From: a virus
DNA: 64,000 nt
Strand: one strand, 5' to 3'
Virus record (IMG/VR): IMGVR_UViG_3300027917_000019
Location: 32,001 to 96,000 of that record
This document shows, piece after piece, positions 10,444 to 27,746 of this stretch. Below the pieces are notes generated by a model that saw nothing but the letters and a program-made list of their open reading frames with translations, was not told where the DNA came from and ran no database searches. The position numbers were made by a program, and so were the translations under genes. The number at the start of each line of letters is the position of its first letter. The first letter of the stretch is position 1.

Positions 10444-13400
10444 ATGAACCGATTGTACATTTCCACAGATCTGGTCAAGGCAGTGGGTGCTCGCTACGGT
10501 AAGACTGTCCCTCCCAAGGGTGCTCCTACTGATGCACCCGCTGTTCCTAAGGCTCCTGCTCCAGGTGCCGGCCAGGAAGTGGATTACGTACAATCAGACA
10601 AGCCACCCCCCGGTAACCTCGGAAGGACTGAGGGAGGCTATTGGCGTGTTCCTAAGGGGGCGGTGAGTCCCAAGTCTGGAAAGGTTGAAGACGAGAAGGT
10701 CAAGCGAGAGGCTGCCAAGGAGGAGATGTCCAAGGACCCTCTGAAGACAGATGAGGACCCTCCCAAGGAGGCAGATGTTGAAGGCGCTGCAAAGATCCAG
10801 GAGCAGGCTACACAGCCTGACGTAGATCCTCTCAAGGAGGGTGCTCCTGAGGGAGAGGATGGCCCTGCTCAAATGCAGGCTATGATTACTAGGGACATGC
10901 GGCAGCAGCTTGCTGACCTTGGTCACGATAAAGACGCTGTGGGACGTATGACTCCACAAGAAGCAGCGGACCACATAGCCTCTGGAAAGACTGTAGGTAA
11001 GGAGCCTGGTGGGGGTGCTCCTACCATCGCAGAGCCTGATAAGCCTTTTCCTGGAAAGGAACCGCTAACCCTCAAGGACCCGCAGGCTACGTTTGCTACT
11101 ATGGACCCCGAGGCACATGCCAGCACAGACCCCATGGGGCATTATGTCCACGCTGGAATTGCAGAGAAGCTTGGAGACAAGAAGCTTGCACACTTCCATC
11201 GTGAACAGGCTCGCTCAAAGGTTGGAGCGGAGGAAGAAGATCCTAACCGCCGTGGTATTTACCACCACGAGTTGGCTACTAAGCTTCAAGCTGCTGGAAT
11301 GCACGAGGAAGCTGCACACCACAGAGATGCTGCGGCACGTGCAGTCGAGGCTCGCGTGGCTGCTGAAGCTGCTACCCAAAAAGACGCATCTAAGGTTACA
11401 GATGTTGAAGGAATAGCTTCTAAGCGTCAAGCTGAGAAAATGAGGCAAGAGGCTGAGCTTGGTGTTGCGGATACTATGCTGAAGCCCCCTGCTGAAGGTG
11501 CGCCTAAGGCAGCAGAGGCTAAGGCTGAGCCACCTAGTGGTGCTGAGCCCCCTGCTCCTAAAGGATCAGCTACAACGACACAACAAGACAAGGGGCAAAC
11601 TCAGCCTGGTGTTGATACGCTTAGACAACAACAAATGGCCGCTCAGAAGCGCGCTATTGAGGAATTCCATGAGGCAGGCCAGAAGCATGAAAAGGCTTCC
11701 GCTGACTATAAGAAGAAAGTTTCTGAGTATGAGGCTAAGCTCAAGGAACATGCGGATGCTAGAAAGGAGCACGCTGCTGACTTGAAGAAGGTTAGCCAGA
11801 AGCTGAAGGATGTTCGTGATAACAAGCCTGTAAAGGACGACAGTGAGCTTAACAAGTTGAAGAAGAAAATGAAGGCTGTTCGTATGGAGGCGGCTCGTCA
11901 TAAGGACGAGCTGTCTCCTCAGCATGAGAAGCATGCGAAGGCTATTGAGAAGGTTAAGCAGAGTATTGCTAGTCACCAAAAGAAGCTCAGCGCTGCTGAA
12001 AAGAAGTTGAAGGCCCACCAAAAGAAGAAGCTAGTTCGTGGTGAGATGTCAAAGGATGCTTTTGAAACTGCGTCTAAGAATCACCACGCGGCAGGTGTTA
12101 AACTACAAGATAAGTACGATAAGCTAAAGCAGAAGGGCGCAGATCTGTCTGCTCAACACAAGGTCATTAAGCAAGCCAGCGACTCTTACAAGGCAGACCA
12201 CAAGAAGCAGCAAGTTACCTATCGTGAGAAGCTTCGTAAGATGCAGGAGAAGCACGACAAGTTGAAGGAAACTATCGGCGCCAAGCACGCCAAGGCTGTA
12301 GAAGCACACAAGAAGAAGCTAAAGACCGCTCAAGCCGCTGTGGACAAGCATAAGGCTAAGAAGGATAAGCTCCCTGAGAAGCCCAAGAAGGTTTCAGGAA
12401 AGCCTCCGGAAGCTCCGGCTGGTAAGCCTAAGTCTGATGAAGAGAAGATGGCACACAGCGAGCACCAGGCAAGTGCTCGTAAGATGCGAGAGAATATCGA
12501 ATCTCACCTGCGGGATAACCCGGATCTGGACCCGGCTGCTAAGAGTAAGTTGATGAAGCTTCATGAGATGGCAGCACGGCATGAACATATCCAAAATGTT
12601 CCCACCTCAGACCAGAAGAAGGAGATGAGAGACTTGAGTTCTCGTGCTAAGGAGCACGGAGCCGATCGTCATCACTCAGAGGTCAAGGCTGAGCAGGATG
12701 CAAAGGCTGCTAAGGAGCAAGAAAAGGCTGACAAGCAGAAGGCTCGTGAAGATAAGGAATTCGCGCGCAAGCGTGCTGACGCTGAAAAGCGTGTACAAGC
12801 AGAGCATGCTAACACCCCCAGACCTCCTGAGAATGAGTTTGAACAGGCAGAGGTACTACAACACGCAGGAGCAGCCGAAACGGCTCTTGAAAATATACAG
12901 TCACATCTCGATGATGGAGATCTCGATGACGAGACTAGGGCTAACCTAGAAGAGATGGTTTCTAAGCTGGAAGAACATTCAAAGCTTGATACGGTTCCCA
13001 CAGAAGACCAAAAGGCAGAACTGAAGAAGATTCAGAGTCTTACAAAGCAACACGGTAGTAAGCACTTCCACGATACCGCTGAAGGCAAGCAGGCTGTTGC
13101 CGGGGCTGCTCCTATTAAGAAGGAGTCTGCACCTTCGCGTGTCGCGACGACTGGAAGGCGTGGTACTGGTTTGTCTAGCATCTATCGCAGGGCCTCTGCG
13201 TTTGGAAGTAAGATGGGAGCGGCAGCTGCATCCCCGTACGGCGGTGCCGGTTCGTTTGCAGACACTCTAGACTATGCCGGCCAAGGTGCAGCTACAGGCG
13301 GTCATTATCTCCTGAACAGTGGGAAGAAAAAGCCCACCAGTAAGCCAGTAGGAAAGCCTGCAGGAGATACAAAGGTGTCTCCTTCGGAAGAAAAAGACAT

Positions 13401-13494
13401 GGCCAGGTTGTCTAGTAAGCGTGCAAAGGCGAAAGACCAGTCCAAGACTCAGAAGAGTATAAACAGCAATCCTAGTCTTTGGGTAAGAAAGTAA
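10444..13494 (+). CDS. large K/A/H-rich coiled-coil protein, putative internal head protein
   Basis: 1016 aa; long coiled coil, duplicated ~85-aa domain, terminal LYI/LWV motifs. Confidence 0.8.
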   Translation: MNRLYISTDLVKAVGARYGKTVPPKGAPTDAPAVPKAPAPGAGQEVDYVQSDKPPPGNLGRTEGGYWRVPKGAVSPKSGKVEDEKVKREAAKEEMSKDPLKTDEDPPKEADVEGAAKIQEQATQPDVDPLKEGAPEGEDGPAQMQAMITRDMRQQLADLGHDKDAVGRMTPQEAADHIASGKTVGKEPGGGAPTIAEPDKPFPGKEPLTLKDPQATFATMDPEAHASTDPMGHYVHAGIAEKLGDKKLAHFHREQARSKVGAEEEDPNRRGIYHHELATKLQAAGMHEEAAHHRDAAARAVEARVAAEAATQKDASKVTDVEGIASKRQAEKMRQEAELGVADTMLKPPAEGAPKAAEAKAEPPSGAEPPAPKGSATTTQQDKGQTQPGVDTLRQQQMAAQKRAIEEFHEAGQKHEKASADYKKKVSEYEAKLKEHADARKEHAADLKKVSQKLKDVRDNKPVKDDSELNKLKKKMKAVRMEAARHKDELSPQHEKHAKAIEKVKQSIASHQKKLSAAEKKLKAHQKKKLVRGEMSKDAFETASKNHHAAGVKLQDKYDKLKQKGADLSAQHKVIKQASDSYKADHKKQQVTYREKLRKMQEKHDKLKETIGAKHAKAVEAHKKKLKTAQAAVDKHKAKKDKLPEKPKKVSGKPPEAPAGKPKSDEEKMAHSEHQASARKMRENIESHLRDNPDLDPAAKSKLMKLHEMAARHEHIQNVPTSDQKKEMRDLSSRAKEHGADRHHSEVKAEQDAKAAKEQEKADKQKAREDKEFARKRADAEKRVQAEHANTPRPPENEFEQAEVLQHAGAAETALENIQSHLDDGDLDDETRANLEEMVSKLEEHSKLDTVPTEDQKAELKKIQSLTKQHGSKHFHDTAEGKQAVAGAAPIKKESAPSRVATTGRRGTGLSSIYRRASAFGSKMGAAAASPYGGAGSFADTLDYAGQGAATGGHYLLNSGKKKPTSKPVGKPAGDTKVSPSEEKDMARLSSKRAKAKDQSKTQKSINSNPSLWVRK

Positions 13495-13497
13495 CCC

Positions 13498-14247
13498 ATG
13501 AAGCTATACATCGATTTGAATAAAGCAGTCAGTCAGACACCCAACACTGGGGTAGATACTCCGTTGGAAGACCAATCTGTTGAAGAGTATAAGACCTCCT
13601 TTGCTCGCCGCCCGGTAGGTGTAGCTGCTGGCGAAGAAAATGATCCTGATGATCCCAAGGTTGGTAAGCGTTGGAATCGCGCTTCTGACACTGAGGTATC
13701 CGAGCGTAAGGCTAGACAGAAGAAGCGTACAGCAGACGCAGCAGCGGAAGGGTTGATTAAGCCTCCAATTAAGAAGGCACAACCTTTTGATGGTGGGTTT
13801 ACAAGAGAAGAAGCTGAGCGTGCTGCCGACAGTTTGAAGGTTGATTTTAGTGAAGAGAAGTTTGGTCTTAGTGAATTTGTCGCAGGAATTAACGTAGAGC
13901 GCGAGCATGCTGACGTTAGTAAGGATGCTTCAACACTAGGTAAGATTACTCTTGCACACCTTCGTGAAACTCCAGACTACTACAAGAAACTCAAGCAAGT
14001 AGAGAAGAGTGTTGATATTCTAAAGAGTATTAACAACAAGCTTGCTACCGAAAAAGCTAGGCGAATGCCTAACATACGAGAGCAAGAGTTTTTGATGGAT
14101 GTCCTTGGGTATTCTCAGGAAGACATCACCAAGGGTGTTGCTGTCATTACCGGACGTAATAGGCGTTTGTTCAATAGGTGGTTGTGTGATAGACTAGCTA
14201 ATTCCACCTCTGACCTGCTAAAGTCCGTAGGAGCTGACATTGGCTAA
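13498..14247 (+). CDS. DUF5661-like head-associated protein
   Basis: EFVAGINVEREHAD...KITLAHLRETPDYYKKL. Confidence 0.7.
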   Translation: MKLYIDLNKAVSQTPNTGVDTPLEDQSVEEYKTSFARRPVGVAAGEENDPDDPKVGKRWNRASDTEVSERKARQKKRTADAAAEGLIKPPIKKAQPFDGGFTREEAERAADSLKVDFSEEKFGLSEFVAGINVEREHADVSKDASTLGKITLAHLRETPDYYKKLKQVEKSVDILKSINNKLATEKARRMPNIREQEFLMDVLGYSQEDITKGVAVITGRNRRLFNRWLCDRLANSTSDLLKSVGADIG

Positions 14248-15973
14248 CGACTACGAAAGTTGGAATGACCATATCAAGCAGTGGCGCGATGCAACTGCAA
14301 ACGTACCCGTATTGGTTCGTGAAGACATTCTGAAGGGGAAATATCGTCCTAGTAAGCCTACAGAGGGTATTCGTGCCCTCATGGAAGATCCGCTTTCCAT
14401 TCAATACTCTCTGGGGTATAAGGATCGCAAATATTCTCTTACGTACGATGTACTAAAGCAGACGGTCCAGAATCTAGCAATTTTGTCTGCAATCGTACAG
14501 ACGCGCACTCATCAGGTAGCTTCGTTTGCAGTACCGTTTAGATCTTCAAAGAGCCTTGGGTATGTTATCAAGCACAAGGATTCAACCAGAGAGACCACTA
14601 AGAGTGAGCGCCAGATGATCCAGGATATGGAGAAGTTCATCTATAATTGCGGCGCAGCAGAGCCAAATCCACACAACAAAGGCTTTGTAAGAGATGATTT
14701 TGAAACATTCCTGAAGAAGATTGTAAGAGACTCTCTTGTTTACGACCAGTGTTGTTTTGAAATTGTTCCAGACCGCTCTGGACAGCCATATGAGTTCATG
14801 GCTGTAGATGCCAGCACTATTAGGTTGGCTGCACAGAATCAGGTATTCGGTCCCAATAATACATGGTTTGACCGTCCACCTGTGGCAAATAACAAAGCCC
14901 GCCATACGAATCTCTCTAATCCGTACACTACCTTGCGTATGTATGGTAAGGATGCGCGAAAGAAGGCGGCGTTCGTACAGCTTATAAATGGGCAGATTGA
15001 GAACGTTTTCGCTAGAGATGAGCTTGCTTTTGGTGTGCGTAATCCACGTTCTGACATCTACATCCAAGGGTACGGATACGGTGAGATTGAGCAGCTGATT
15101 ACCATTATCACTGCACATCTGTATGCTGAAGAATACAACAGACGTTTCTTCATGCAGGGCAGCGCTCCCAAGGGTTTGTTGAATTTGAAGGGTGATGCTA
15201 TGACGCCGGACCAGCTTGAAGGTTTCCGACGTCAGTGGCGTGCTAATCTTGAAGGTGTTGAAAACGCTTGGCGCACTCCCATTCTTCAGGCCGAACAGGG
15301 TATTGATTGGATTAACCTCAACCCCACTAACCGTGAAATGGAATACGGGCAGTGGATGGAATATCTAATTAAGATTACTTGTGGAGTGTTTCTTATCGAC
15401 CCTGCTGAGTTGAACTTTGACCTTGCCGGAGGAGTTCAACAGACCCCCTTGTTTGAGTCCAGTTCTGAGTGGAAACTCAAGGCATCTCGTGACAGGGGTC
15501 TTCGTCCGCTTCTTCGCTTCATTGCGAAGATGATCAATGATAATATCATCGCAAAGATTGATGACCACTTTGTCTTTGATTTTGTAGGACTTGATGAGCT
15601 TACTGAGCAAGAAAAACACGAGCTTCGCAAGGAGCAGGTCGCTTCCTACATGACTCTTAATGAGATTCGTGATGCAGAAGATCTGCCGCGCGTGCTGGGT
15701 GGAGATATGATTCTCAACCCAACATATACTCAAGCACTTCAGGTCATGCAGCAGATGCAGCAGGCTGAGCAGGCACAACAAGGTCAAGAGCAGCCTGGAC
15801 AAGCACCACAGCAAGCTGCCCCTGCCGGTGGAGAAGAAGAGAGCGCTCCTGAGCCTTCTCCAGACTACTCCGACAACTTTACGAAGTCTTTGTCTAGAGA
15901 TAGGCCCATTCTGGAGATTTCTGTAGGGGAAGATTATGACGAGTGGCTAGAGGTATGGCGTGATGACTCGTAA
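14240..15973 (+). CDS. portal protein
   Basis: FLKKIVRDSLVYDQ, VDASTIR, GVRNPRSD..GYGYGEIE, RRFFMQGSAPKG, MEY..W..YLIK..CGVFLIDPAE (Twort/SPO1-like portal). Confidence 0.95.
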   Translation: MANDYESWNDHIKQWRDATANVPVLVREDILKGKYRPSKPTEGIRALMEDPLSIQYSLGYKDRKYSLTYDVLKQTVQNLAILSAIVQTRTHQVASFAVPFRSSKSLGYVIKHKDSTRETTKSERQMIQDMEKFIYNCGAAEPNPHNKGFVRDDFETFLKKIVRDSLVYDQCCFEIVPDRSGQPYEFMAVDASTIRLAAQNQVFGPNNTWFDRPPVANNKARHTNLSNPYTTLRMYGKDARKKAAFVQLINGQIENVFARDELAFGVRNPRSDIYIQGYGYGEIEQLITIITAHLYAEEYNRRFFMQGSAPKGLLNLKGDAMTPDQLEGFRRQWRANLEGVENAWRTPILQAEQGIDWINLNPTNREMEYGQWMEYLIKITCGVFLIDPAELNFDLAGGVQQTPLFESSSEWKLKASRDRGLRPLLRFIAKMINDNIIAKIDDHFVFDFVGLDELTEQEKHELRKEQVASYMTLNEIRDAEDLPRVLGGDMILNPTYTQALQVMQQMQQAEQAQQGQEQPGQAPQQAAPAGGEEESAPEPSPDYSDNFTKSLSRDRPILEISVGEDYDEWLEVWRDDS

Positions 15974-16823
15974 CGTATTACCCATAAGGCTATTGATAGC
16001 TCTTGATACTTCTGCTAGAATTCCTAACACCACTAGTGTATCTAAGAGTGTTGACTCCGCTATGGAAAAGGTTCCTGAAAAGGACAAGATTTCGAAGCCA
16101 TTCCAGTCTGAAGCTCAGCGGGGTAAATTCTATGCCATGGCAGAACAGGGTAAGATCTCTGAGGAAACTGTGGAAGAGTGGGAGCATGCAACTCCAAAAG
16201 GTAAGAAGCTCCCAAGGAAGAAAAAGATGAATAAGGCTCTAACAGACGCGATTGAGATTTTGAAGGCAGTTGCCTGTATGCCAGTTTCTGGCGACAAGCT
16301 AGAGAAGGACGCTACTGAGAAGGGCGTTTCTAAGGCGGCAGGGGCTCCTCCAGTGGGCGGTGAAGAGCGCAGGGTGTCTAAGCCTGTAGCTCCAAAGGTG
16401 GCCCCGGGAGCGTCTCCTGTGGGCGGCGAAGCTAAGAGAACGCCTGGTGCTTCAAGTTATGGTTCAAAGGGGACTAGCTACAACCCCATGAATAAGAGTG
16501 CTGAAGATGAGGATGTTGACAAGGCTCTTAAGTCTTCGGCAATTGTAGGCATTGCCCGCCGCATGCGGCTGCACGACTATTCTGCCGGCGTTGCTGGTGA
16601 TCAGCCCGTTATCGGTACAAACCGTGTGAGGAACGATCATGAACCTCCGGTAGTTCCTGTTCGTAGGGTTGAGACTCCAGAGCCTACGAAGGTTGTTGTA
16701 GACACATTTGTAGATTGTGAGCAGTGTGGTTGCGTATATAAGAGTTTAGGCAAGTGCCCTAAGTGTTCTAAAATTTCAGAATTGGGCGGCGAAGCGATTC
16801 CGTTTCATTTCCGAGGTCGTTGA
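15960..16823 (+). CDS. putative head protein with PFxSxAQR domain and C-terminal zinc ribbon
   Basis: PFQSEAQRGKF...EWEHATPKGKKLP; CEQCG...CPKC. Confidence 0.7.
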   Translation: MMTRNVLPIRLLIALDTSARIPNTTSVSKSVDSAMEKVPEKDKISKPFQSEAQRGKFYAMAEQGKISEETVEEWEHATPKGKKLPRKKKMNKALTDAIEILKAVACMPVSGDKLEKDATEKGVSKAAGAPPVGGEERRVSKPVAPKVAPGASPVGGEAKRTPGASSYGSKGTSYNPMNKSAEDEDVDKALKSSAIVGIARRMRLHDYSAGVAGDQPVIGTNRVRNDHEPPVVPVRRVETPEPTKVVVDTFVDCEQCGCVYKSLGKCPKCSKISELGGEAIPFHFRGR

Positions 16824-17233
16824 TGTTGTACCTGCGTCACGATCTCATAAAGGGTGACTCTTCCACCAAGCCTGAGAAGGCTAAGAAAGAAGGAGGAGCC
16901 TCATCCAAAACCGGTGAGCAGCGTGGAGGCAAGTATGTTGCCCGCGTTCAAACTGGTTATGAGAAGGACGGTAGTCCTCGATATAAGTACTTTGATACTC
17001 TAGAAGAAAGAGATAAGTACTTACAGAGTCGTGGTACTAGTGGTGACGGAAAGAAGCGTCTTAAGGACAAGCTCACTGATGAGCAAAAAGAAGCAAAGCA
17101 AAAACAGAAAGTTAGCCATGGTAAGGTAGAGTCCGGCAAGCTTTTTGTAGCCAAGGACAAAAAAGAAAAGAAGGAATCGGAGGAAGATACTAAGAAGAGT
17201 ATTTCCGTTTTCATCTGGAGGCTAGAAGAATGA
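16823..17233 (+). CDS. putative internal head protein
   Basis: MLYLRHDLIKG; GGKYVAR...RYKYF. Confidence 0.75.
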   Translation: MLYLRHDLIKGDSSTKPEKAKKEGGASSKTGEQRGGKYVARVQTGYEKDGSPRYKYFDTLEERDKYLQSRGTSGDGKKRLKDKLTDEQKEAKQKQKVSHGKVESGKLFVAKDKKEKKESEEDTKKSISVFIWRLEE

Positions 17234-17703: not shown

Positions 17704-17915
17704 AGATTAGGACAAACCTATCTCCTGAACAGTTGGAGAATATTGCTAAAGGCATTAAGGTCGCTGCTGATAAACAGCGCGTTAGACCGTATGTTCCGGA
17801 AAACAACGCAGAGTCTGAGTTGCTTAGAAAAGCAGACAGTGCCCTTGATCTAATGCTAGACAGTTTACAAGAAGAAGTAGCAAACATATTGCTAGATAAG
17901 GAACACAATGAGTGA
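17700..17915 (+). CDS. hypothetical head-region protein
   Basis: Coupled overlaps; IAKG, LRKA. Confidence 0.7.
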   Translation: MKIRTNLSPEQLENIAKGIKVAADKQRVRPYVPENNAESELLRKADSALDLMLDSLQEEVANILLDKEHNE

Positions 17916-18373: not shown

Positions 18374-21055
18374 ATGCCGCTAACGAAGGGTAAACTGGAG
18401 AAGCTACGCCAGGCGGTAAAGCTTCATGTGAACTGGTTTGTCGCGGCTATCTTAGGAGAGGACGCGCTTACAGCACAGGAGCGTGCTGAGCTTGAGAAGT
18501 TTAAGAAGCTTCCTAAGCAGGCTCTAAGCTTAATTGAGCGTGGATTTGTCCTTGGGCGTCTTAAGTCCATCTTCAAAAAGAAAGAATGGAAGGGCCTTTC
18601 TTGGGAAGACTTTATAGATTTAGCCAAGCGTCAATCTCTTTCACCTCTAGAGAAGCTCGTATTGCAGCAGGCTAAGCTGTCAGCGGCTCAGCACATCAAA
18701 GGTCTCGCCGACGACATCGCCGCTGGCGTTTTCAACCAGCTAGCAAAGACTACCAATCAGGTCGTCAGCGAGGCGTCTCTCAAACAAATCATCAGTGATG
18801 AAGTTCAGCTTGCAGTTCTAGAGAAGAAGTCCTACACACAACTCGCTTCAAGTCTAGCGGCAAAGACAAAGACGCAGTATGGGTACAAGTGGGAACAAAT
18901 CTCTAGGACAGAACTCCACTCTGCTAAGACTCACGGACTTGCTCAGGCGATTATCAACAAGGTAGATGTCTACAAGCACAGTAAGGGCATCGATTCCATG
19001 GTTTCCCTCGTTCCAAAGCCTGGAACTTGTCCAGACTGTGCAAGGCACTATCTAGATAAGAGCGGAAATCCTAGGGTATTCTCACTGAGACAGTTGATGG
19101 GGGCAGGGTCTAACGCTGATCCTGGTGTTGTTCATAAGAAGACAAAGGGTGTGCATTTGCAATGGAAGACTACACTTCCGCCGTTGCACCCAAACTGTCG
19201 TTGTGAGTTGGTGTTCATTCCTCCTGGGTATACGTGGGTGAACGCACAGCTTACACTGACCAATCCAAGCGTACTAAAGAAGGCCATCGGGGATTCTAAG
19301 CTTAGTGGAACAGTAAAGCCGCAAGGGCCTGCGAGTGCAAAGGCATCTGGACCTGTCAATCCTCCAACTATCCCCGGTATCAAGAGTCCTGGGCAGGCTG
19401 ACAACGGTGGCCGTCCTGCGGCTCCTAAGTCTGCTTGGGCAGGCATGGAAGTTGACTACATTCCTAAAGCAGGGACAGCAGAGAAGCCTGAGGGTGCTGT
19501 TGGAGACACTGAGTCTAGTTGGGTTGTCCCGAAGGGCTTTAGACCGGGTAAGGCTCTCACCCCTGAGCAGGAAGCTCAGAAGAAGCAATTGGAGAAGCAA
19601 GCAGCCATTGAGTATGGTAAGGCAGACAATCCGCACGCTGAGATTCTAAGCCACCTAAGCAAGGGTGAGTTTACCGATATGCGCCAGCTTTCTGGGGATG
19701 AAGCTGGGCTATCAGGGATGGCTACATATCTTGTGCAGTTTAAGGATGGCCCCCGAGGGCTGTTGAAGGCGACTACTAAGAAGCTATATGCCAACTCTGG
19801 AGACCCTGAGCTGCTTCAAATTGGTGAGGGAACAACTATTCCTGGAACAGGCCCACAACGCGAAGCAGCTGCATACAACATGCATATGCAGTTTGGTTTG
19901 AAAGACCATGTTCCTCCTACAACAACGCGAATACACAATGGGGCTAATCACTCCATTCAAAGTTGGGCAGAAGGATTTGGACCTGCCAGAAGCATGCTCA
20001 GTTCTGCAGAAAAAGAAGAATCTGGCGTGGTGGTTGCTGGAGAAGGGGCTAAGAAGTCCACAGCAACTAATGAAGTAAAGAGCTTGTTGGAGAGGTGCCC
20101 TGCAGATAAGAAGGAGGCTCTAAAGCAGAAGCTCTTCGAAGGGGCTACTATGAACATCGTCTGCAACAACGGAGACGGGCATAACGGTAATATTCTCGTC
20201 AAAGAAGACTTCAGTGATGTTCGCTTCATAGACAACTCCGCTAGTTTTGGGCACGGCATGGTAGGTGTGTCTAGTGAAATCCACGGAGACATGCACAACG
20301 CTGGAATGAAGCTGAAAGTTCCGGACCACCTCATGGAGAAGTTCTCAAAGACTTCTTACGGAGATATACAAAAGGCTACAAAGGGACTTGACGATAGAGA
20401 ATCTGCTCAGACGTTTCTTCGTATGCGTTACGTTCAGCATTTGATGGATACTGAGGGACATCTTGATTTTGAAAAGTTTCGTCCAGAAGTCATGGGTCCC
20501 GGTGGTGGTGGTCCCCGTATTGGTATGTGGAATGGCTCAGGCTTTGAACAAGTTCTTGATTATGCAAAGAGGCGTGAGAAGGGAGAGCTTGCGCACGATC
20601 AGTTTGTTGCGTTTGCCAAGGATTTCATATCCTCTGCACAAGATGAGAACCACCCCGACAACAAGTCTGTTAGTGCTATGTTTGCTAAACAGTCTCCGCA
20701 AGATGTTCTTATTAGTGGGGAGGAGTTTTACGACAAGCATGTGGTTCCTAACTCTGAGGCAGGAGAACACCCTTCTGTAGCTGCTGAGCGTAAGAAGATG
20801 GAGCGCGCACATACACTACAAGACGCTCCCGGCTCTTCGGCTCCTTCTGGAAAGAAGTCTGAGTTTGAACCAAAACGCACACAAGTCTCTACCAAAGAGT
20901 GGATGGCTGCTTCAAAACCAGTGAGCACTAAAGCACAGAGCCCTAAAGCACACAAGACTTCTGCAGAACCAATTGGCACTAAAGCAGCCAAGCCTTCACG
21001 CATTAAGAAGTCACTATCTCTCTACATTGACGACCCAGGTCGACCTTGGTCTTGA
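18374..21055 (+). CDS. MuF (SPP1 gp7-like) minor head protein fused to a PI3K/PI4K/HipA-like kinase domain
   Basis: ISRTELH, CPDC, LPPLHPNCRCEL; then GLLK, REAAAY...VPPT, SIQSW, NGDGHNGNILV, FIDNSASF. Confidence 0.85.
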   Translation: MPLTKGKLEKLRQAVKLHVNWFVAAILGEDALTAQERAELEKFKKLPKQALSLIERGFVLGRLKSIFKKKEWKGLSWEDFIDLAKRQSLSPLEKLVLQQAKLSAAQHIKGLADDIAAGVFNQLAKTTNQVVSEASLKQIISDEVQLAVLEKKSYTQLASSLAAKTKTQYGYKWEQISRTELHSAKTHGLAQAIINKVDVYKHSKGIDSMVSLVPKPGTCPDCARHYLDKSGNPRVFSLRQLMGAGSNADPGVVHKKTKGVHLQWKTTLPPLHPNCRCELVFIPPGYTWVNAQLTLTNPSVLKKAIGDSKLSGTVKPQGPASAKASGPVNPPTIPGIKSPGQADNGGRPAAPKSAWAGMEVDYIPKAGTAEKPEGAVGDTESSWVVPKGFRPGKALTPEQEAQKKQLEKQAAIEYGKADNPHAEILSHLSKGEFTDMRQLSGDEAGLSGMATYLVQFKDGPRGLLKATTKKLYANSGDPELLQIGEGTTIPGTGPQREAAAYNMHMQFGLKDHVPPTTTRIHNGANHSIQSWAEGFGPARSMLSSAEKEESGVVVAGEGAKKSTATNEVKSLLERCPADKKEALKQKLFEGATMNIVCNNGDGHNGNILVKEDFSDVRFIDNSASFGHGMVGVSSEIHGDMHNAGMKLKVPDHLMEKFSKTSYGDIQKATKGLDDRESAQTFLRMRYVQHLMDTEGHLDFEKFRPEVMGPGGGGPRIGMWNGSGFEQVLDYAKRREKGELAHDQFVAFAKDFISSAQDENHPDNKSVSAMFAKQSPQDVLISGEEFYDKHVVPNSEAGEHPSVAAERKKMERAHTLQDAPGSSAPSGKKSEFEPKRTQVSTKEWMAASKPVSTKAQSPKAHKTSAEPIGTKAAKPSRIKKSLSLYIDDPGRPWS

Positions 21056-21079
21056 CTCCTCCCACATAGGTGATATCAT
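21052..21079 (+). promoter_or_regulatory. possible promoter
   Basis: TTGACT-16-TATCAT with extended TG, 6 nt before ATG 21086. Confidence 0.4.
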
Positions 21080-21085
21080 ACTACC

Positions 21086-21310
21086 ATGCCACGAGAACAC
21101 GAACACGAACTCTTCGACAATACAAAAGGTAAGTCTTTAGGCAAAGCCTGGTGGAATCCTGACACTGAGAAGATTGAGTGCAGCAACCACACTGTGTTGA
21201 AGATGATTTTCAACAACCACTCTCTTGCTTCTAAATCTGACAAAGCTTTGATTAGCAATCTAGCTCGGGCCTTCAAGTCAGGTTACATAACTGCGAGGTT
21301 GGTCAAGTGA
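21086..21310 (+). CDS. small protein after MuF-kinase (immunity candidate)
   Basis: 74 aa ORF immediately downstream. Confidence 0.65.
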   Translation: MPREHEHELFDNTKGKSLGKAWWNPDTEKIECSNHTVLKMIFNNHSLASKSDKALISNLARAFKSGYITARLVK

Positions 21311-21825
21311 GTGACTATATTCGTGTGTTTGAACTGAAGGGATTGGATGAGAACTTTGATGACGATCTGTCAAAGTCAATTCTAGAAATTCACCTAGATA
21401 AAGCATTGCACCCACAAGAAGCTGTTGAGAAGTCTCTGTACAACTTCGATTTAGATACGCCAGACGGCGTAGATCGCCTGTTAGAGCTTCTCCCAATACT
21501 AGACCCCGAGATTATAAACGAGGTTTATCAAGAGATTTTTCCTGGGTATCCTGTGGATACCCTCGCTCCGCGTATGGCTCGTTTAGAGTTGCGGGGTTAT
21601 TTAATGGACTACTTGGCGAATAATGGAACACAAGAAGGACAAGGAGCTGGAGAAGAAGCGGCAACTGCAGGAGGACCTGGATCGCCTGGCGAAGAGCCGC
21701 GATCTGAGGTACCAGGAGCCCAGCCTTCTGAGGAAGCTGGGGCAGCGGGTGTTCCTCCAGAACCTGAGCCTGGTGCCCAAGCTGACGAAGCTGAAGTTGT
21801 TGAGCCTGGGGCTGCACCCAGCTGA
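21307..21825 (+). CDS. hypothetical head-region protein with acidic tail
   Basis: LSKS, LDKA, VEKS motifs. Confidence 0.7.
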   Translation: MSDYIRVFELKGLDENFDDDLSKSILEIHLDKALHPQEAVEKSLYNFDLDTPDGVDRLLELLPILDPEIINEVYQEIFPGYPVDTLAPRMARLELRGYLMDYLANNGTQEGQGAGEEAATAGGPGSPGEEPRSEVPGAQPSEEAGAAGVPPEPEPGAQADEAEVVEPGAAPS

Positions 21826-21925
21826 TATAGATTATCTCCTCAACAAGAAACATCTTGTTGAGGTTCGTGACCCTGTCACCAAAATATGCTACTATTCAGT
21901 CAATATTGATCCAGTAGGTGAGTGA
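21623..21925 (+). CDS. hypothetical protein overlapping the previous gene in +1 frame
   Basis: ATG start, protein-like composition, stop overlaps the next start. Confidence 0.6.
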   Translation: MEHKKDKELEKKRQLQEDLDRLAKSRDLRYQEPSLLRKLGQRVFLQNLSLVPKLTKLKLLSLGLHPADIDYLLNKKHLVEVRDPVTKICYYSVNIDPVGE

Positions 21926-23273
21926 TACGTTGCCTGTAGAGGATAACATCAACAAGGCGTTTGGCCTACCTGAAGGAATAGACGCGGACCACGAGTATGT
22001 TTACCGCTCGGGGGAACGTGGTATCTATGATTTCTGGTACAAGGACCGCGCAGGAAACTACTGGAAATATACTAACGCACCGGAGGGCCATCAGGATTAC
22101 GATCCGTATGGTGGCGCTGCGATGCTAATAGCCGACCAGCCCATGCCTCATACCGCTCCTCAGTTTTATTCCGAGGATGGTAGAAAGCTCCATGTGGCTG
22201 TCCCGCAAGGGATGGAACTTACAAGAAACGAAGCATACGACCCTGAGAACCCGCGTAGTGTTTGGTACGGCGTGTACCAATCTGAGGACGGCGAGCCTCG
22301 CTTTGTCTACTACGACGCCGACGTGCGAGAGAATCTAGACCTCTGGGTTCAATATATGCTTCGTGTAACCGACGCTGGCCTAGTGTCTTATCGTAAGTAT
22401 GCATCTAAACTCTTTGAGTCTCCACACCCTAAGGACCGTATTATCGGTGTGATGCTCATGCTGGTCGACCAGGGTTTCTACGATGCATTTGAACTTGCGC
22501 AGGCTAGAGTTGAAGACGTGGAGTATGTCGACAACACCATAAAGTTGTTGAGCCGTAAGTTGGTATGTGACATTGGGCTGGTCGACTTTTTCACGTCAAT
22601 AACGAGTAAGCGCATTCCCAGCGATCCTCTGTTTGTACTAGACACGGTACACGGTAAAGAGCCGCTTGGCGAGCGTCATTTCTACAGCATTTTCAAGGCT
22701 TTGAAGGTGTCTCCACATGTTCTTTTGTACTGGCATGCGTCACAAATGTTTAGTCGTATTGTGCACAGACTTGCTGCCAATCATACACCTCTTGAAGAGG
22801 TAGAAGAGCGTGCATACGCAGAACTTGCTTTGGCATTGAACACGGTAGAAGACGTCACCCACCTTGTTGACTACAAGGTGAAGGAGGCGTTGTTGCGCAA
22901 TTATGAACCAATTGAGGAGCCTGAAGTAAGTGGTGAATCAACCCCTGCGCAAGACGTGGCAGAACAAGAGCCCGTTGCAAAAAGCATTCTTCGTACTGGT
23001 GGTGATAGCTTCGGCGTTGCTACCGTTTGGTCTGATCTTGTTGCTCGTAGACCCGATGAGCAGGAATTCAGTGTCTGGCTTCATGCTACGCCTTTGCACG
23101 ATACTACGGAGGAAGAGCAGGCAGAGATTGAAGAACAGCTAGTCGCTCAGCAGGAAGAAGCAGATCAGGAGGCTCCTCCTGAAGGGGGTGGTGGAGGTCC
23201 TGAAGCGCCCAATATGGGTACGTCTCCTACTCCTTCCGAAGGAAAGTTGCCGGCAGGAGAAGCTAGCGAATGA
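21918..23273 (+). CDS. topoisomerase IB-like protein, apparently inactive
   Basis: TopIB-like order of motifs with catalytic positions substituted. Confidence 0.6.
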   Translation: MSDTLPVEDNINKAFGLPEGIDADHEYVYRSGERGIYDFWYKDRAGNYWKYTNAPEGHQDYDPYGGAAMLIADQPMPHTAPQFYSEDGRKLHVAVPQGMELTRNEAYDPENPRSVWYGVYQSEDGEPRFVYYDADVRENLDLWVQYMLRVTDAGLVSYRKYASKLFESPHPKDRIIGVMLMLVDQGFYDAFELAQARVEDVEYVDNTIKLLSRKLVCDIGLVDFFTSITSKRIPSDPLFVLDTVHGKEPLGERHFYSIFKALKVSPHVLLYWHASQMFSRIVHRLAANHTPLEEVEERAYAELALALNTVEDVTHLVDYKVKEALLRNYEPIEEPEVSGESTPAQDVAEQEPVAKSILRTGGDSFGVATVWSDLVARRPDEQEFSVWLHATPLHDTTEEEQAEIEEQLVAQQEEADQEAPPEGGGGGPEAPNMGTSPTPSEGKLPAGEASE

Positions 23274-24235
23274 TTTTCGACGCACTAGAAGACATAGTCA
23301 AGGCTCGCAAGGCTAAGGGGCTGGATAGTTGGAAGAAGCTAGATCACCTGAAGGACAAGCTTCAAGGTAAGCAAGCTTCTCACATCACATTCACCACCTG
23401 CTATCCTGGACAGGAGGGAACTAAGAAACACCTCGGTTCTGCTTCTGGAAACCTTCATTTTGTGCTTGGGTACGTTAGCCCTGGTTTTCATGTTGCTCCC
23501 TATCATTGGCAACTAGTCGACCCGAACCTAACTGACCAAGAAGCAGCGGCAAAGAAGCACCCCACAAACCCCAGATACTGGAAAGACTCAGGACTACCGA
23601 TTGAAGATGAGGGAGACTTTGACCTCGGTAAGCCTCACAAGTTGTCACAGAATAGTGCCAACTCAGTGGCAAGAGCTTCTGTTAGAAAGACAGGGGCTAT
23701 GCAGGTCAAGTCTGGGTATGGAAAGTATGTTGCTGTCCCTGGAGAGGGGGCTGTCTACTCTCTTTCTAACGGGCATGTTTACAAGTGGGACGTTATCAAG
23801 GAATCTTTCTTTGCAGCAACTCAGCCTGATGTCACAGAGGCTATGAACGAGTCTGAGGAGGCTCCTGAGGTAGAAAAGAGTCTTAGAGGTCCCAGGGAGC
23901 CTTTCAGTGACTTTGTCTATCCTCTTGTGCGTAGACACTTCCCGAAGCCTGGATCTGTCTTTGACGCCGGTTCTGTAAAAGTACTGGTGAAATCAGACCG
24001 CGTAGTATTTTTCGATGAAAACAAGGACCCTACATACATTAAGGTGTTTGACCGTGTGTATGACCACTTTGATTTGAAAAAAGGTGGTGACATCCACCCA
24101 TCTATCCTGCTACAATTCGCAGTACACTATCTAGGCGTAAATCAACAAGAACTTGCTCAATTTGTTCACAATGAGGAAACTACAACTGGTGACGATTCTT
24201 CTCCTAATGTAATACAGAGGAACTCTAGTGGATAA
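23270..24235 (+). CDS. hypothetical head-region protein
   Basis: 321 aa; IVKA, VEKS, LVKS. Confidence 0.75.
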   Translation: MIFDALEDIVKARKAKGLDSWKKLDHLKDKLQGKQASHITFTTCYPGQEGTKKHLGSASGNLHFVLGYVSPGFHVAPYHWQLVDPNLTDQEAAAKKHPTNPRYWKDSGLPIEDEGDFDLGKPHKLSQNSANSVARASVRKTGAMQVKSGYGKYVAVPGEGAVYSLSNGHVYKWDVIKESFFAATQPDVTEAMNESEEAPEVEKSLRGPREPFSDFVYPLVRRHFPKPGSVFDAGSVKVLVKSDRVVFFDENKDPTYIKVFDRVYDHFDLKKGGDIHPSILLQFAVHYLGVNQQELAQFVHNEETTTGDDSSPNVIQRNSSG

Positions 24236-24449
24236 TGCACTCTGTTGCACGAAATGTGGTGAAGTCGTCATTAAGTCGATGGGTACTTCAACGAAAATCC
24301 GTGCTAAAGTATTAGTGGTTAGAGATAACCAAACATTTGCTGTATGTAAAGGGTGTGACAGCGAGATACCTGTACCGCTCGTAATGAATGAAACTATGGC
24401 AAAGGCTTTAGGAAAAACTGCCAAGCTAAGACTTTACGTTAGAAAATAG
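24228..24449 (+). CDS. zinc-ribbon protein
   Basis: CTKCG...CKGC; ends LRLYVRK. Confidence 0.75.
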   Translation: MDNALCCTKCGEVVIKSMGTSTKIRAKVLVVRDNQTFAVCKGCDSEIPVPLVMNETMAKALGKTAKLRLYVRK

Positions 24450-24452
24450 TGC

Positions 24453-24481
24453 TTGACAACCTGTTTAGCCTAGACTAAACT
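24453..24481 (+). promoter_or_regulatory. sigma70-type promoter
   Basis: TTGACA-17-TAAACT. Confidence 0.65.
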
Positions 24482-24508
24482 TATCAAACGGTTGAATGAA
24501 CTCCAAAT

Positions 24509-24544
24509 AGGGAGATCACCTTCGGGTGGTTTCCCTTTTTTTTT
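24509..24544 (+). terminator. intrinsic terminator
   Basis: AGGGAGATCACC-TTCG-GGTGGTTTCCCT followed by 8 T. Confidence 0.9.
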
Positions 24545-24551
24545 AGGTTTT

Positions 24552-25295
24552 ATGGGCTGGATCGATAACGATACTTTTGAATTCTGGATGCCGGCGCAAG
24601 CTATTTCTTTGACGAAGTCTAAGAAAAACGGTGCTGACGCAGAAGGACGACGTTGGGTTCAGGGAATTGCTTCTACTAGCTCTAGAGACCTACAAGGCGA
24701 GATCATTGAACAGCAGGGGATTGATTTCTCTTATTTTGTAAAGCACGGCTTTTTCAACTGGGACCACAAAGAAGGTCCTGATAATAAGGTTGGAGAGCCT
24801 ACTGAGTGTAAACTCACCAAGAACGGGCTTTGGGTCAAGGGTTTTCTTTGGAAGAATAAGGCGAGAGCAGACGACATCTGGGAACAGATGAACTCTATGG
24901 CTTCTTCAGGTTCTTCCCGCAGAATGGGATTCTCCATTCAAGGAAAAGTCAAGAGACGCTCAGGGAACGTTATTAAAGAGTGTTGGATTCAAGACATAGC
25001 AATTACGGCTTGTCCTGTGAATACCTCCACTTGGGCTGAAATCGCCAAGAGCCTGTCTGCACAGACCTGGGATCTCAGCAAGTCCCTAGAGGAAGATGAG
25101 GAAAAGGCGCTTAGCGCGGGCGGTTCTCCGCTGGTTCCTGAATCTCTCGAAGGGAAACAAAAGGACGTCAAGACATTGGATAAGAGTCTTACGTTCGAAG
25201 AATCTGTGGCATGGATTAGTTCCACCACTGGTATGCCTGACGACGCAGCAGAAGCAGCGGCTAGGGTAATTTTCTCAGTACTCACTAAGGAGTGA
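24552..25295 (+). CDS. prohead (maturation) protease
   Basis: GIAST..RDLQGE, FNWDH, GLWVKG, RMGFSIQG, IAITACPVN..TW; start moved past the terminator. Confidence 0.93.
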   Translation: MGWIDNDTFEFWMPAQAISLTKSKKNGADAEGRRWVQGIASTSSRDLQGEIIEQQGIDFSYFVKHGFFNWDHKEGPDNKVGEPTECKLTKNGLWVKGFLWKNKARADDIWEQMNSMASSGSSRRMGFSIQGKVKRRSGNVIKECWIQDIAITACPVNTSTWAEIAKSLSAQTWDLSKSLEEDEEKALSAGGSPLVPESLEGKQKDVKTLDKSLTFEESVAWISSTTGMPDDAAEAAARVIFSVLTKE

Positions 25296-25302: not shown

Positions 25303-26274
25303 ATGAGCGATCAGACTGTAAAGCAGGACGACCTCGCGAAGGCACTCGCTGGACTTCAGGAAATTGCAAAGGGTCATTCTTCTCGTGGTACCGCTACCAC
25401 GAAGGTAGAATCCATGCGCGATTCTGGGGCTGGCGCAGGTTCTGATGCGGGATCTACTCAGGTCTATCACACGCCGTCAAACTCTGAACCCGGAAGCTGG
25501 GCTGGTTCTACTGCTAGAACCGTCCCGGAAGACGGTGCTACCGATTCTGTTGGTCCTGATGGAACAGACTATGTAGCTCAGGGTAAGGTGATGAAGTCCA
25601 TCATCGAAAAGATGGCTAAGGGCCTTCCACTTACTGCGGACGAAGCTTCCTTCTACGCAGCTATTGCTAAGGGCGGCATGCCCGACTTCTTGAAGAAGGA
25701 CGACAAGAAGGACAAGGACGACGCTGAAAAGTCCGTTAAGAAGTCAGATGATGACGACGCGGACGACAAGGATGACAAGATGGGTAAGTCTTTGTCTGAC
25801 CACGCAGCGGAAGACGACACAGTTTCTAAGGGTCTTGAAGTCTCTGAGTTCTTGGCTGGATTCGCATCAGTCATTCACAAGAGCCTCCAGTCTACTGAAG
25901 AGCGTGTTGTTGCTCGCGTTCTCAAGGCACTCGCTAGCGATGCTGAAGGTACGGGCGAGTTCAACAAGTCTCTTGCAGAGGCGGTTGGTCGTCTTGCAGA
26001 GTCCGTGGCGGCAGTTTCTCAGCGTGTAGATCAGGTTGAGTCTCAGCCTGCGCATGCTCCGCGCGCTGCTCACAATGTACAGGTCCTCGAAAAGGGCTCG
26101 TATGATGGTCCTGCGGGGGGAGAACCCCTCAGCAAGGCTCTAGTAGCTGCAACACTTGTCGAACTAGTACAGCGCGGTGAAGCTACCACGCAAGACGTTC
26201 TAAAGTTCGACTCATCCCAGACTCTTTCACCTCGACTTGAGCAGAAGGTTCGTGCTGCTCTCGGCGGGCGCTGA
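25303..26274 (+). CDS. putative scaffold protein
   Basis: Between protease and capsid; acidic, coiled coil, more than 10 K|[SAG] motifs. Confidence 0.8.
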   Translation: MSDQTVKQDDLAKALAGLQEIAKGHSSRGTATTKVESMRDSGAGAGSDAGSTQVYHTPSNSEPGSWAGSTARTVPEDGATDSVGPDGTDYVAQGKVMKSIIEKMAKGLPLTADEASFYAAIAKGGMPDFLKKDDKKDKDDAEKSVKKSDDDDADDKDDKMGKSLSDHAAEDDTVSKGLEVSEFLAGFASVIHKSLQSTEERVVARVLKALASDAEGTGEFNKSLAEAVGRLAESVAAVSQRVDQVESQPAHAPRAAHNVQVLEKGSYDGPAGGEPLSKALVAATLVELVQRGEATTQDVLKFDSSQTLSPRLEQKVRAALGGR

Positions 26275-26294
26275 TAGAATAGGAGTAATCAGAG

Positions 26295-27746
26295 ATGATT
26301 GGACTTCAGGCGTTCTCTAAGAACAATGGCTATAACGGTCCTGGTACCGCTACTGCTGGCGAGATTGAAGAGCTTGCAAAGGCTCTTGAAGCTGGCTATC
26401 AGGTAGGTGCAGGAAAGACCGGAGGAAGTGCCCTCCGCGTCGAGTCCCTTGAGGCTTCCCTTAAGGTACTTACCTTCACTTCTTCCCATATAAAGCTTTG
26501 GAAGAAGATTCCCAAGTCTCCGGCATATTCAACTGTCGAAGAGTATAACCAGCTTACTGATTACGGTGGACAGGCTACTCCGTGGGTACAGGAAGGTGAA
26601 CTTCCCCAGGCCAGCGATAGCTCCTACGTTCGTCGTACTCAGCTCGTAAAGTTCCTCGGAACAGTTCGAGAGGTAACGCACCAGGCTTCACTTGTGCACC
26701 CTGCACACGGTGACTTGATTGCGCTAGAGAATCACAACGGAATTCTCTACTTGCTTGAGCAGGTAGAAAAGTTCCTCTTCGCTGGTGATTCCTCTCTTGC
26801 TGCTGACGGCGAAGCTGAGCAGTGGGATGGTCTTGACGCCCTTATCGATAGCACGGCAGTGCTCGATCTTGAAGGTAATAGCCTTCAGGAGGCAGATATC
26901 GAAGAGGCTTCTAACCTCATCATTGAGTCTTACGGATTCCCCACGGACATGTTCCTTGGAAACCGTACGCACTCTGACCTTACGAAGACGTTCTATCCGC
27001 GTCAGCGCATTCAGATGCCTGCTCCGGTGAACGGCAAGGTTGGTCTCACTGTTTCTTCCATTGCTACGCAGGGTGGAGACATCGAGTTCAATCCTGACAT
27101 CTTCATTAAGCAGACCCCGCCGCCTCCGTCCGCTGCGTCTTCAGTAAACGCTCCGGCAACTCCGGCATCTATTGCATCCGCATTGAATGCTGGTGCATCT
27201 AATGGTGACCACGAGAAGGGCGCTCCTGCTGGTGATACGGACGTTGCTTATGTCGTTACGGCAGCAAACCGCTTCGGCGAGTCTGCTCCTACGGCGGTGC
27301 AGGGTGCTACCACTCAGCTTACGGCAGCTCAGAAGGCGGCTGGAAACACCATTACTCTTACGGTTACAAACCCTGGAACTATTGGTGCATTCCCTCCGGA
27401 ATACTTCAAGATTTATCGTTCCCGTGCACAGGTAGGAACCACCGTCCCGACGGCGCTCTCATCCTACGCTCTTATCGCAACTGTGCCGGCATCTTCCCAG
27501 CTTGCTTCTGGCACGACTGTGGTTGAGGACGTAAACCTTCAGCTTCCGTTTACTTCCACGGCTTATCTTGGTGAGATGAACCCCAACGTGTTGACCTTCC
27601 GTCAGCTTATGCCCATGATGAAGATGGACCTAGCAGTCCTCTCCCCGGCATTCCGTTGGATGATCCTCCTCTACGGAACGCCCATCATGTTCGCTCCGAA
27701 GAAGTGGCTCCGTCTTATCAACATCGGACAGCTTGACACCCGCTGA
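26295..27746 (+). CDS. major capsid protein
   Basis: ELAKAL.AG, GSALRVESLE, AYSTVEEY, EGELP, QLMPMMKMDLA, LYGTP...PKKW (A511/Twort-like). Confidence 0.95.
   Translation: MIGLQAFSKNNGYNGPGTATAGEIEELAKALEAGYQVGAGKTGGSALRVESLEASLKVLTFTSSHIKLWKKIPKSPAYSTVEEYNQLTDYGGQATPWVQEGELPQASDSSYVRRTQLVKFLGTVREVTHQASLVHPAHGDLIALENHNGILYLLEQVEKFLFAGDSSLAADGEAEQWDGLDALIDSTAVLDLEGNSLQEADIEEASNLIIESYGFPTDMFLGNRTHSDLTKTFYPRQRIQMPAPVNGKVGLTVSSIATQGGDIEFNPDIFIKQTPPPPSAASSVNAPATPASIASALNAGASNGDHEKGAPAGDTDVAYVVTAANRFGESAPTAVQGATTQLTAAQKAAGNTITLTVTNPGTIGAFPPEYFKIYRSRAQVGTTVPTALSSYALIATVPASSQLASGTTVVEDVNLQLPFTSTAYLGEMNPNVLTFRQLMPMMKMDLAVLSPAFRWMILLYGTPIMFAPKKWLRLINIGQLDTR

Follow-up and report, generated by a model that had tools for sequence, protein, structure and literature searches.

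What directs accessory proteins into the head of an SPO1-like phage? The question is raised by a 64,000-nucleotide stretch of virus record IMGVR_UViG_3300027917_000019 (bases 32001–96000 of a 165.8-kb virus judged 98% complete), which we call the window. The studied region comprises the head-assembly genes of an uncultured myovirus, distant kin of the SPO1-type phages (Herelleviridae), and the + strand holds every one of them. An 8.5-kb block of ~13 unannotated genes (15960–24449) separates the portal gene from the protease gene. On many unrelated proteins of this region, an initial annotation had noticed a terminal L-Y-[IV] signal fenced off by x-x-K↓[SAG] protease sites (↓, predicted scissile bond) and had proposed a capsid cargo-loading code; two further genes with such tags lie just upstream of the portal gene (10444–14247). 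Our analysis points to a two-element code, in which a terminal hydrophobic-aromatic-hydrophobic tag (here LYx) accompanies a separate hydrophobic-x-K↓[SAG] site and the combination is confined to head-module proteins. Very few phages (T4; partly P1, P22, and phiKZ-like phages) have had the head loading of accessory or ejected proteins worked out at the molecular level; for the SPO1/Herelleviridae lineage, whose members include therapeutic Staphylococcus and Listeria phages, it is not understood.

To quantify the pattern, we used two composites. The N-composite requires M, at most 6 residues, [LMIF][YFW][ILV], 1–10 residues, and K[SAG]; the C-composite requires K[SAG], at most 16 residues, L[YFW][ILV], and at most 14 residues to the protein end. 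The whole-genome set of open reading frames (ORFs) comprised 258 non-overlapping candidate genes, compared with the 882 remaining (non-gene) ORFs. Among the 258, three N-composites and three C-composites fall on five proteins, all of them in the head block (Fisher P = 7e-7): the products of genes 10444, 13498, 16820 (the small basic protein, 16823–17233), 18374, and 24228. The 882 non-gene ORFs yielded two N-composite and three C-composite matches. The cut-site motif behaves similarly: [LIVMF]xK[SAG] occurs within the first 40 residues of 16/17 head-block proteins vs. 7/43 others (P = 2e-8). It is especially dense in the scaffold, where 13 sites are observed vs. 1.7 expected by shuffling, and the capsid leader carries LAK↓A. 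Both of these recurrences had been described in the initial annotation; for the protease, which it credited with five sites, we count four of the hydrophobic-x-K[SAG] form.

Tagged head-region proteins recur in ~80 relatives, and the same partition holds there. We assembled 105 loci with capsid identities of 47–78%, using capsid- and portal-anchored searches of viral contigs together with stretches from nine larger relatives. In the 75 capsid-anchored loci, which provide 494 kb upstream and 404 kb downstream of the capsid gene, the coding strand contains 86 composite matches upstream and none downstream, among the tail genes (P = 5e-23); the antisense strand contains 13 and 8, respectively. 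The head-versus-tail enrichment proposed as a check on the code is thus borne out. Approximately 700 orthologues of other families, all tail families included, lack the composite tag altogether. The three N-tags of the window use different codons, which points to selection at the protein level; a DNA-level signal as the source of the N-tags was ruled out on the same ground.

The anatomy of the code emerges from 48 distinct N-tags and 64 distinct C-tags, whose ranges are bounded by the search patterns but whose distributions within those ranges are informative. The tag consensus is L-[Y/F/W]-[I/L/V], mostly realized as LYL, LYI, LYV, or LFI. N-tags consist of 1–5 residues, the triplet, a spacer of 1–9 residues, and a site that is mostly L-x-K↓A with Asp at P4, giving the usual form M-x-LYL-(D)-L-x-K↓A. 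C-tags begin with [LMV]-x-K↓S, mostly with Leu at P2', followed by a spacer of 0–16 residues, the triplet, and 0–12 residues to the protein end; Pro or Arg usually precedes the triplet and Arg or Lys follows it, so that the usual form is hydrophobic-x-K↓S-L...(P/R)-LY[ILV]-(R/K). Every tag lies distal to its cut site, on the side predicted to be discarded. Spacing between triplet and scissile bond varies in N-tags and C-tags alike, which speaks for a triplet that stands on its own, outside the protease's subsite recognition. Tag and site are retained in orthologues whose bodies are often only 23–50% identical, while the linker changes in length and sequence: Purifying selection acts on the tag and not on its surroundings. 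Beside the tags, in the scaffold, and at the capsid leader, the cut motif is the same, hydrophobic-x-K↓[SAG]-L.

Every peptide quoted in the initial annotation is present in the translations, and its eleven examples differ in conservation. Several are strongly conserved. The DUF5661 protein (13498) keeps M-x-LYLDL-x-K↓[AS] in 8/10 orthologues; the 16823 protein keeps its N-tag in 11/13 and its C-tag, which reads K↓S-L-x(0-5)-L[YF][IV], in 13/13; and the zinc-ribbon protein (24228) keeps its C-tag in 38/49 orthologues, the tag Leu being invariant in 44 sequences. The N-tag of the 1016-residue protein (10444) is present in 6/6 orthologues that are elsewhere only 23–32% identical, and the internal tag of the 17908 family—L-[FYV]-[ILV], a spacer, and hydrophobic-x-K↓[SAG]—in ~10/12. 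Conservation is partial for three C-terminal examples. In the 10444 family only 2/6 orthologues carry the C-tag, which leaves it with weaker support; the K↓[SG]L[YWF][IL] tail of the 18374 family is found in about half of the long orthologues listed and, by regular expression, in 7/32 orthologous ORFs, many of them truncated; and among portals, those of close relatives retain F-x-K↓S and then [VFY]LEI, with distant portals ending K↓S..DLWL. Two proposed examples, LLI..VSK↓S in the 15960 protein and the LSK↓S-ILEI-HLDK↓A pair in the 21307 protein, are absent from orthologues. The 21307 family conserves VEK↓SLY instead, in 96% of 23 orthologues, after a preceding segment of ~40 to ~130 residues.

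Orthologue comparison adds proteins with variant tags or bare sites. The 17230 family carries P-V-R-F-[IL]...E-L-L-K↓S in ~15/22 orthologues, and the 23270 family carries [ILMF]-F-D-[AS]-W-E-x-hydrophobic-x-K↓A in 92% of 26. In the 21918 family, NINK↓AFGLP is kept in 93% of 30 orthologues; two relatives have canonical LYL or LWI tags before this site, which is bare in the phage studied here. The 21918 protein also gives a weak lead to a topoisomerase IB/tyrosine-recombinase fold in Atlas structure and feature searches (template-modeling score 0.44–0.56). The N-module of the 17908 protein is joined to differing C-parts in different phages, and two loci (L086 and L088) carry >400 extra residues after the site.

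Some relatives place a Cys/His-rich N-extension of 40–100 residues (e.g., C..GG..C.RQGGDGS..H) before the same conserved K↓[SAG] site. Extended orthologues occur in the 21307 family (loci L082, L029, L037, L004, L059, L007, L015, L030, and L028) and in the 21918 family (L007, L059, L028, L030, L037, and L018), so a single site can shed very different propeptides.

Use of the tag at either terminus, and its portability among proteins, were both part of the initial proposal, and both find support among the relatives. Their 127 distinct tagged proteins fall into 29 clusters after tag removal, at least 10 of which have two or more members; some singleton clusters are probably chance matches. Forty of the 127 have no homologue in the window, and sizes range from ~60 to 3793 residues. 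At least ten unrelated families are represented, with the tag placed at the N-terminus, at the C-terminus, at both, or once internally. Two giant ORFs, of 3793 residues in locus L099 (ending at ~14890) and 1911 residues in L045 (ending at ~7480), have the tail K↓[SG]..L[YF][VI]; they are candidate head cargo of very large size, on the scale of P1 DarB.

For one family the reach of the tag could be followed further. A profile of the zinc-ribbon family, searched against 1.84 billion representative proteins, returned 292 relatives at E ≤ 0.001. An aromatic tag ends 33 of the best 50 of these, and more distant relatives end in P-x-L-[ILV]-[ILV]-basic. A correspondingly broadened tag pattern occurs in 24, 20, and 9 of successive groups of 50, vs. 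~1.2 in shuffles.

Where does the lysine site come from? The capsid leader provides the anchor. Its ELAK29↓AL site is invariant in 40/40 capsid orthologues and aligns residue by residue with EDVVK24↓S25 of Staphylococcus phage K/812 and with LNK↓AL of SPO1 gp6.1. The deposited mature 812 capsid chain (9row_B, 439 residues) equals the 463-residue precursor minus its first 24 residues, and mature position 14 aligns with precursor residue 38. Because the capsid site is in register with the K/812 mature N-terminus, lysine specificity would be inherited from a lineage in which it is observed; the link to Lys-Ser capsid maturation drawn in the initial annotation holds at this level. In the scaffold, most sites are conserved in 34–40 of 40 orthologues. 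These regularities suggest hydrophobic-x-K↓[SAG]-L as the specificity rule of this protease family, a rule that helps to annotate mature capsid, scaffold, portal, and protease.

The prohead serine protease itself belongs to the assemblin fold. An AlphaFold2 model (mean predicted local distance difference test, pLDDT, 72) matches T4 gp21 (PDB 5jbl, E = 2e-5), with herpesvirus assemblins/proteases next; the fold is all that it has in common with gp21, at 6–7% identity. His72 and Ser128, invariant in 29 sequences, are assumed to be catalytic. Conserved K↓[SG] sites occur at K22, K166, and K211 (numbered from ATG 24552). From this clade through phage K, CP-51, and a Chryseobacterium phage, the N-terminus carries an F-x-F-[WF]-[VM]-P...K↓[GS] segment. 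We did not count this F-x-F-W-M-P segment as a tag, AlphaFold2 placing it in an integral strand.

Two further observations concern the protease. Its C-part (~residues 166–205, after the K↓S site) resembles the capsid N-arm just past the capsid cleavage site (coordinates listed with this resemblance, L108:11428–12189); CampHawk protease residues 158–214 match SPO1 gp6.1 residues 15–71 (E = 2e-6), and phrog_1028 matches both proteins. The protease may enter the prohead by mimicry of the capsid N-arm. In the cultured Chryseobacterium phage MA9V-3 (L110 14336–15934), which has a Bacteroidota host and a capsid protein of 32% identity, a single 532-residue ORF seems to combine protease and scaffold; it has 21 hydrophobic-x-K[SAG] motifs and an N-terminal F-N-F-F-V-P..K↓G segment.

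We regard it as reasonably likely that LYx directs proteins to the capsid and is then cut off by a lysine-cutting head protease of the assemblin fold, i.e., a lysine-type variant of the T4 targeting-sequence principle. Within the forming prohead, the tag would attach its protein to the scaffold core, to the inner face of the capsid, or to the portal. The protease, cutting after Lys in hydrophobic-x-K↓[S/A/G]-(L), would trim the capsid leader, chop the scaffold, and process itself, and it would also remove the tag. The mature protein would then stay in the head, and some copies may exit with the DNA. The capsid protein and the scaffold, the major self-assembling substrates, have no LYx tag, and only accessory proteins carry one; this distribution fits a recruitment signal and not a part of protease substrate recognition. 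The tag also seems not to belong to the fold of each protein, since at least ten unrelated families share it and the 24228 tail is modeled as coil: AlphaFold2 folds residues 1–50 of that protein (pLDDT 87–95) and leaves the C-tail as coil (pLDDT ~70), on which basis we rejected the tag as part of its own fold.

Several points weigh against the targeting interpretation. Many of the tagged orthologues are mutually related, so counting them one by one inflates the tally of independent events. Two zinc modules likewise hold an invariant K-[SA] at a place where cleavage seems unlikely, so that a motif match is not always a site. AlphaFold2 makes the tag-like N-segment of the protease an integral strand (residues 8–17), so look-alikes need not be detachable. 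The tag had been pictured as a short β-strand, a picture at odds with the coil that AlphaFold2 assigns to the isolated 24228 C-tail at pLDDT ~70. A cultured close relative was not found in the phage collection, where the top capsid match is 45% identical. Finally, we infer cargo docking, cleavage, virion presence, and ejection from sequence.

Other explanations distribute the same evidence differently. The LYx element could be an exosite that recruits substrates to the protease, with loading mediated by other parts of each protein. The constant pairing of tag and protease site suits such an exosite, as does the similar aromatic-hydrophobic segment before K↓[GS] at the protease N-terminus, traceable to phage K, CP-51, and the Chryseobacterium phage, and tag removal is predicted by the exosite and targeting models alike. 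However, the most heavily cut substrates (the scaffold with its 13 sites and the capsid leader) lack the element, the 21307 and 21918 families have conserved sites without an LYx tag, and a spacer of 0–16 residues with the tag on either side of the scissile bond is hard to fit to a fixed geometry; we consider an exosite unlikely. Alternatively, the terminal segments might be retained structural elements, for example strands added onto the portal, the core, or each other, with K-[SAG] being compositional or structural. Here the invariant K-[SA] of folded zinc modules and the protease look-alike modeled within its fold count in favor, as does the fact that cargo cleavage is something we infer. 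The tag-adjacent motif, with its hydrophobic P3 and P2' Leu, is nevertheless the one found at the scaffold and capsid sites, the capsid site being the homologue of a site at which cleavage is proven; every tag lies beyond its site, and the linker is variable and modeled with low confidence. Retained elements therefore seem improbable to us.

Two remaining explanations fare worse against the distribution of the tags. If the tags were degrons for host AAA+ proteases, unpackaged copies would be destroyed and packaged copies would lose the degron. Their position at extreme termini and the basic residues following C-tags would be in keeping with this, and MKLYIDLNKAV resembles the published ClpX "N-motif 2" pattern (M-basic-hydrophobic x3). 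Strict restriction to the head module would be left unexplained, and we regard degrons as very improbable. Finally, short motifs are easily over-read, and two of the eleven listed examples lack conservation, so the pattern might stem from chance, from amino-acid composition, or from a signal in the DNA near start and stop codons. The controls refute this to the point of a negligible residual probability: Non-gene ORFs and the antisense strand give a background lower by a factor of 5–20, tail genes give zero, the scaffold count far exceeds its shuffles (13 vs. 1.7), codon usage differs among tags, and relatives do not conserve the TAG read-through that would fuse 24228 to the protease.

How far is this arrangement already known? 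The load-and-clip principle is established from T4, P1 DarB, and phiKZ/SPN3US. In T4, a capsid-targeting sequence (CTS) on internal proteins IPI–III and Alt is removed by the prohead protease gp21 (PMC9024508, PMC10052503), and the CTS is usable as a portable tag (PMC9024508, PMC10052503; Mullaney and Black 1996 as cited there). As with the T4 CTS, a short terminal peptide is found on several unrelated head-associated proteins (five here, 29 clusters in relatives), bounded by the consensus of an assemblin-fold protease that also serves capsid and scaffold; the sequences here suggest a comparable "load, then clip" scheme. Unlike in T4, where cuts follow Glu (L/I-x-E↓) and the signal is N-terminal only, the sites here follow Lys, as hydrophobic-x-K↓[SAG], and the tags are N-terminal, C-terminal, both, or internal. 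The predicted three-residue docking element is, again unlike T4, separable from the cut site by a variable spacer, and the capsid lineage is SPO1-type, not T4-type.

Other head-packed proteins provide looser parallels. The first 30 residues of P1 DarB are sufficient for head loading (PMC9024508), and in SPN3US 13 of 14 mapped cuts take off N-terminal propeptides (PMC10052503). P1 DarB and phiKZ/SPN3US thus resemble the present case in bearing terminal signals or propeptides on head-packed proteins, some of which are delivered to the cell there. They differ in having other sequences and Glu-type sites, in being N-terminal only except for the protease's own C-terminal propeptide, and in lacking a shared three-residue tag reusable at both ends. 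Encapsulin cargo-loading peptides are likewise short and terminal, dock cargo inside an HK97-fold shell, and are transferable from one protein to another; they are retained, involve no protease, and have a Gly/Ser/Leu-rich consensus. Every tag here, unlike those peptides, is set off by a protease-type site with a prohead protease encoded nearby, and the comparison is an analogy only. For an either-end, lysine-type tag, full-text searches that do not cover subscription papers returned only the T4, P1, and phiKZ-type cases. What appears to be new in the sequences is the SPO1-type lineage with a lysine-cutting protease, the use of either terminus, an address separate from the cut site, and the clade-specific portal–protease block.

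Within the Herelleviridae, the core machinery is shared: a homologous capsid (27–45% identity), protease, and scaffold, a leader with a Lys site, and a scaffold and protease rich in the same K motif. Capsid identity is 42–45% to Bacillus SPO1-type phages and ~27% to Staphylococcus/Listeria Herelleviridae, and SPO1 gp6.1 matches the capsid protein at 4e-112. Gene order differs. In SPO1, CampHawk, CP-51, and phage K, the portal gene directly precedes protease, scaffold, and capsid, whereas the 8.5-kb, ~13-gene block intervenes here. Candidate counterparts of the tag in these phages are leads only: SPO1 gp5.3 and CampHawk gp71 (MDKDILLVIDIEK↓G), CP-51 gp27 (ELIIDISK↓A) and gp28 (..NK↓SLGLFVD..), and phage K gp177 (IFS..DFIK↓G). 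They use aliphatic triplets (LLVI, LII) in contrast to the aromatic tag found here. BLASTP found no homology between the 16823 protein and SPO1 gp5.3, and we treat the two as analogues. A shared tag on accessory head proteins of Herelleviridae was not found described in the full-text literature, a search outside of which most subscription journals fall.

A wider proposal is that a three-residue, either-end address with a separable lysine site is the general cargo-loading code of the SPO1-like, lysine-cutting lineage, including SPO1 (gp5.3) and CP-51 (gp27, gp28, and gp30), and that the portal–protease block would be a swappable arsenal delivered with the DNA, comprising MuF fusion, topoisomerase IB/recombinase-like, zinc-ribbon, small basic, and giant proteins of up to 3793 residues. 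We put this forward tentatively and think it more apt to fail than to hold. The initial description of 10–24 kb as a block of injected effectors claims more than the evidence bears out, since some products may serve in the core or in assembly and be degraded or retained in the head; an effector block is one possibility. The predicted mature products have mixed isoelectric points—basic for the 16823 product (~9.6), the MuF fusion (9.3), and the 1016-residue protein (9.2), acidic (4.1–4.6) for the 21307 and 21918 products and the 17908 C-part—and so need not all be DNA-bound or injected. Should the targeting interpretation be right, head cargo would become predictable from genome sequence across a large uncultured clade, concrete and cheap tests would be at hand in laboratory phages such as SPO1 and CP-51, and, in laboratory systems, a very small either-end tag could serve to bring proteins into phage capsids. 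Were the general code also true, sequence alone would reveal, by way of the tag, which proteins thousands of uncultured phages inject.

The features on which these analyses draw are collected in the table; gene identities come from profile searches (PHROGs, Pfam).

Table. Head-module genes and predicted tag, site, and propeptide segments (positions are those of the window; ↓, predicted scissile bond)
Feature	Position	Strand	Evidence
1016-aa (amino acid) protein, gene 10444–13494: N-tag and site MNRLYISTDLVK↓A	10444–10479	+	Translation
1016-aa protein: C-tail SINSNPSLWVRK after TQK↓ (ends 13494)	13456–13491	+	Translation
249-aa DUF5661 protein, gene 13498–14247: N-tag and site MKLYIDLNK↓A	13498–13524	+	Translation
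Portal protein	14240–15973	+	phrog_12 at 5e-59 and Pfam Phage_portal
Portal C-tail after FTK549↓: SLSRDRPILEIS.., carries ILEI	15887–15970	+	Translation
Small basic protein, gene 16823–17233: N-tag and site MLYLRHDLIK↓G	16823–16852	+	Translation
16823 protein: C-tail SISVFIWRLEE after TKK↓	17198–17230	+	Translation
157-aa protein: N-propeptide MSHFPRKPVRFIEANDELLDIQK↓, tag variant	17230–17298	+	Orthologue conservation
Gene 17908–18366: 71-aa N-module ending in internal tag and site PALFIADMEK↓A (18097)	17908–18120	+	Orthologue alignment
893-aa MuF-like minor head protein, large C-terminal extension	18374–21055	+	Weak MuF/minor-head matches
893-aa MuF-like protein: C-tail SLSLYIDDPGRPWS after IKK↓	21011–21052	+	Translation
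172-aa acidic protein: N-propeptide up to AVEK42↓SLY	21307–21432	+	Orthologue conservation
451-aa protein (21918–23273): N-propeptide up to NINK13↓AFGLP	21918–21956	+	Orthologue conservation
321-aa protein: N-tag variant MIFDALEDIVK↓	23270–23302	+	Orthologue conservation
73-aa zinc-ribbon protein (24228–24449): C-tail ALGKTAKLRLYVRK after MAK↓	24405–24446	+	Translation
Prohead protease, ORF	24492–25295	+	phrog_1028 at 4e-53
Prohead maturation protease, start probably ATG 24552	24552–25295	+	phrog_1028
Scaffold	25303–26274	+	phrog_15087
Major capsid protein	26295–27746	+	phrog_752 at 3e-107
Capsid leader, 29 residues, ending ELAK29↓AL	26295–26381	+	Orthologue alignment
Tail sheath	34581–36947	+	Profile search

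Database searches place the block at a distance from described phages. The 17-kb block had no megablast match among 50,697 phage records, and tblastn with two cargo proteins against the phage collection returned a single partial DUF5661 match and was otherwise empty. Most head-block accessory proteins have no match in PHROGs or Pfam; PDB sequence searches with these proteins, including 21918, were empty, as was an Atlas search with the 1016-residue protein.

Some smaller observations accompany the annotated genes. The two zinc modules with an invariant K-[SA] are the 73-residue ribbon, in which GEVVIK↓S (K16) lies between the Cys pairs, and the C-terminal ~35 residues of a 287-residue protein (15960–16823), which read VYKSC..CG...KS..CP.C. 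These pairs may be protected sites, regulated sites, or features unrelated to the protease. Gene 24228 stops at a TAG, and its reading frame continues, across two TAG codons, into the protease ORF (24447–24552). An amber read-through fusion of the two was considered and set aside: Among 60 relatives, the frame and the stop codon both lack conservation, and the arrangement is probably coincidence. In two relatives, G001 (L006/L100) and G003 (L022/L101), the portal frames extend to 996 and 1380 residues vs. 577 here. Both genes are interrupted in frame, splitting the portal match into two and three pieces, respectively, and the interruptions are probably inteins.

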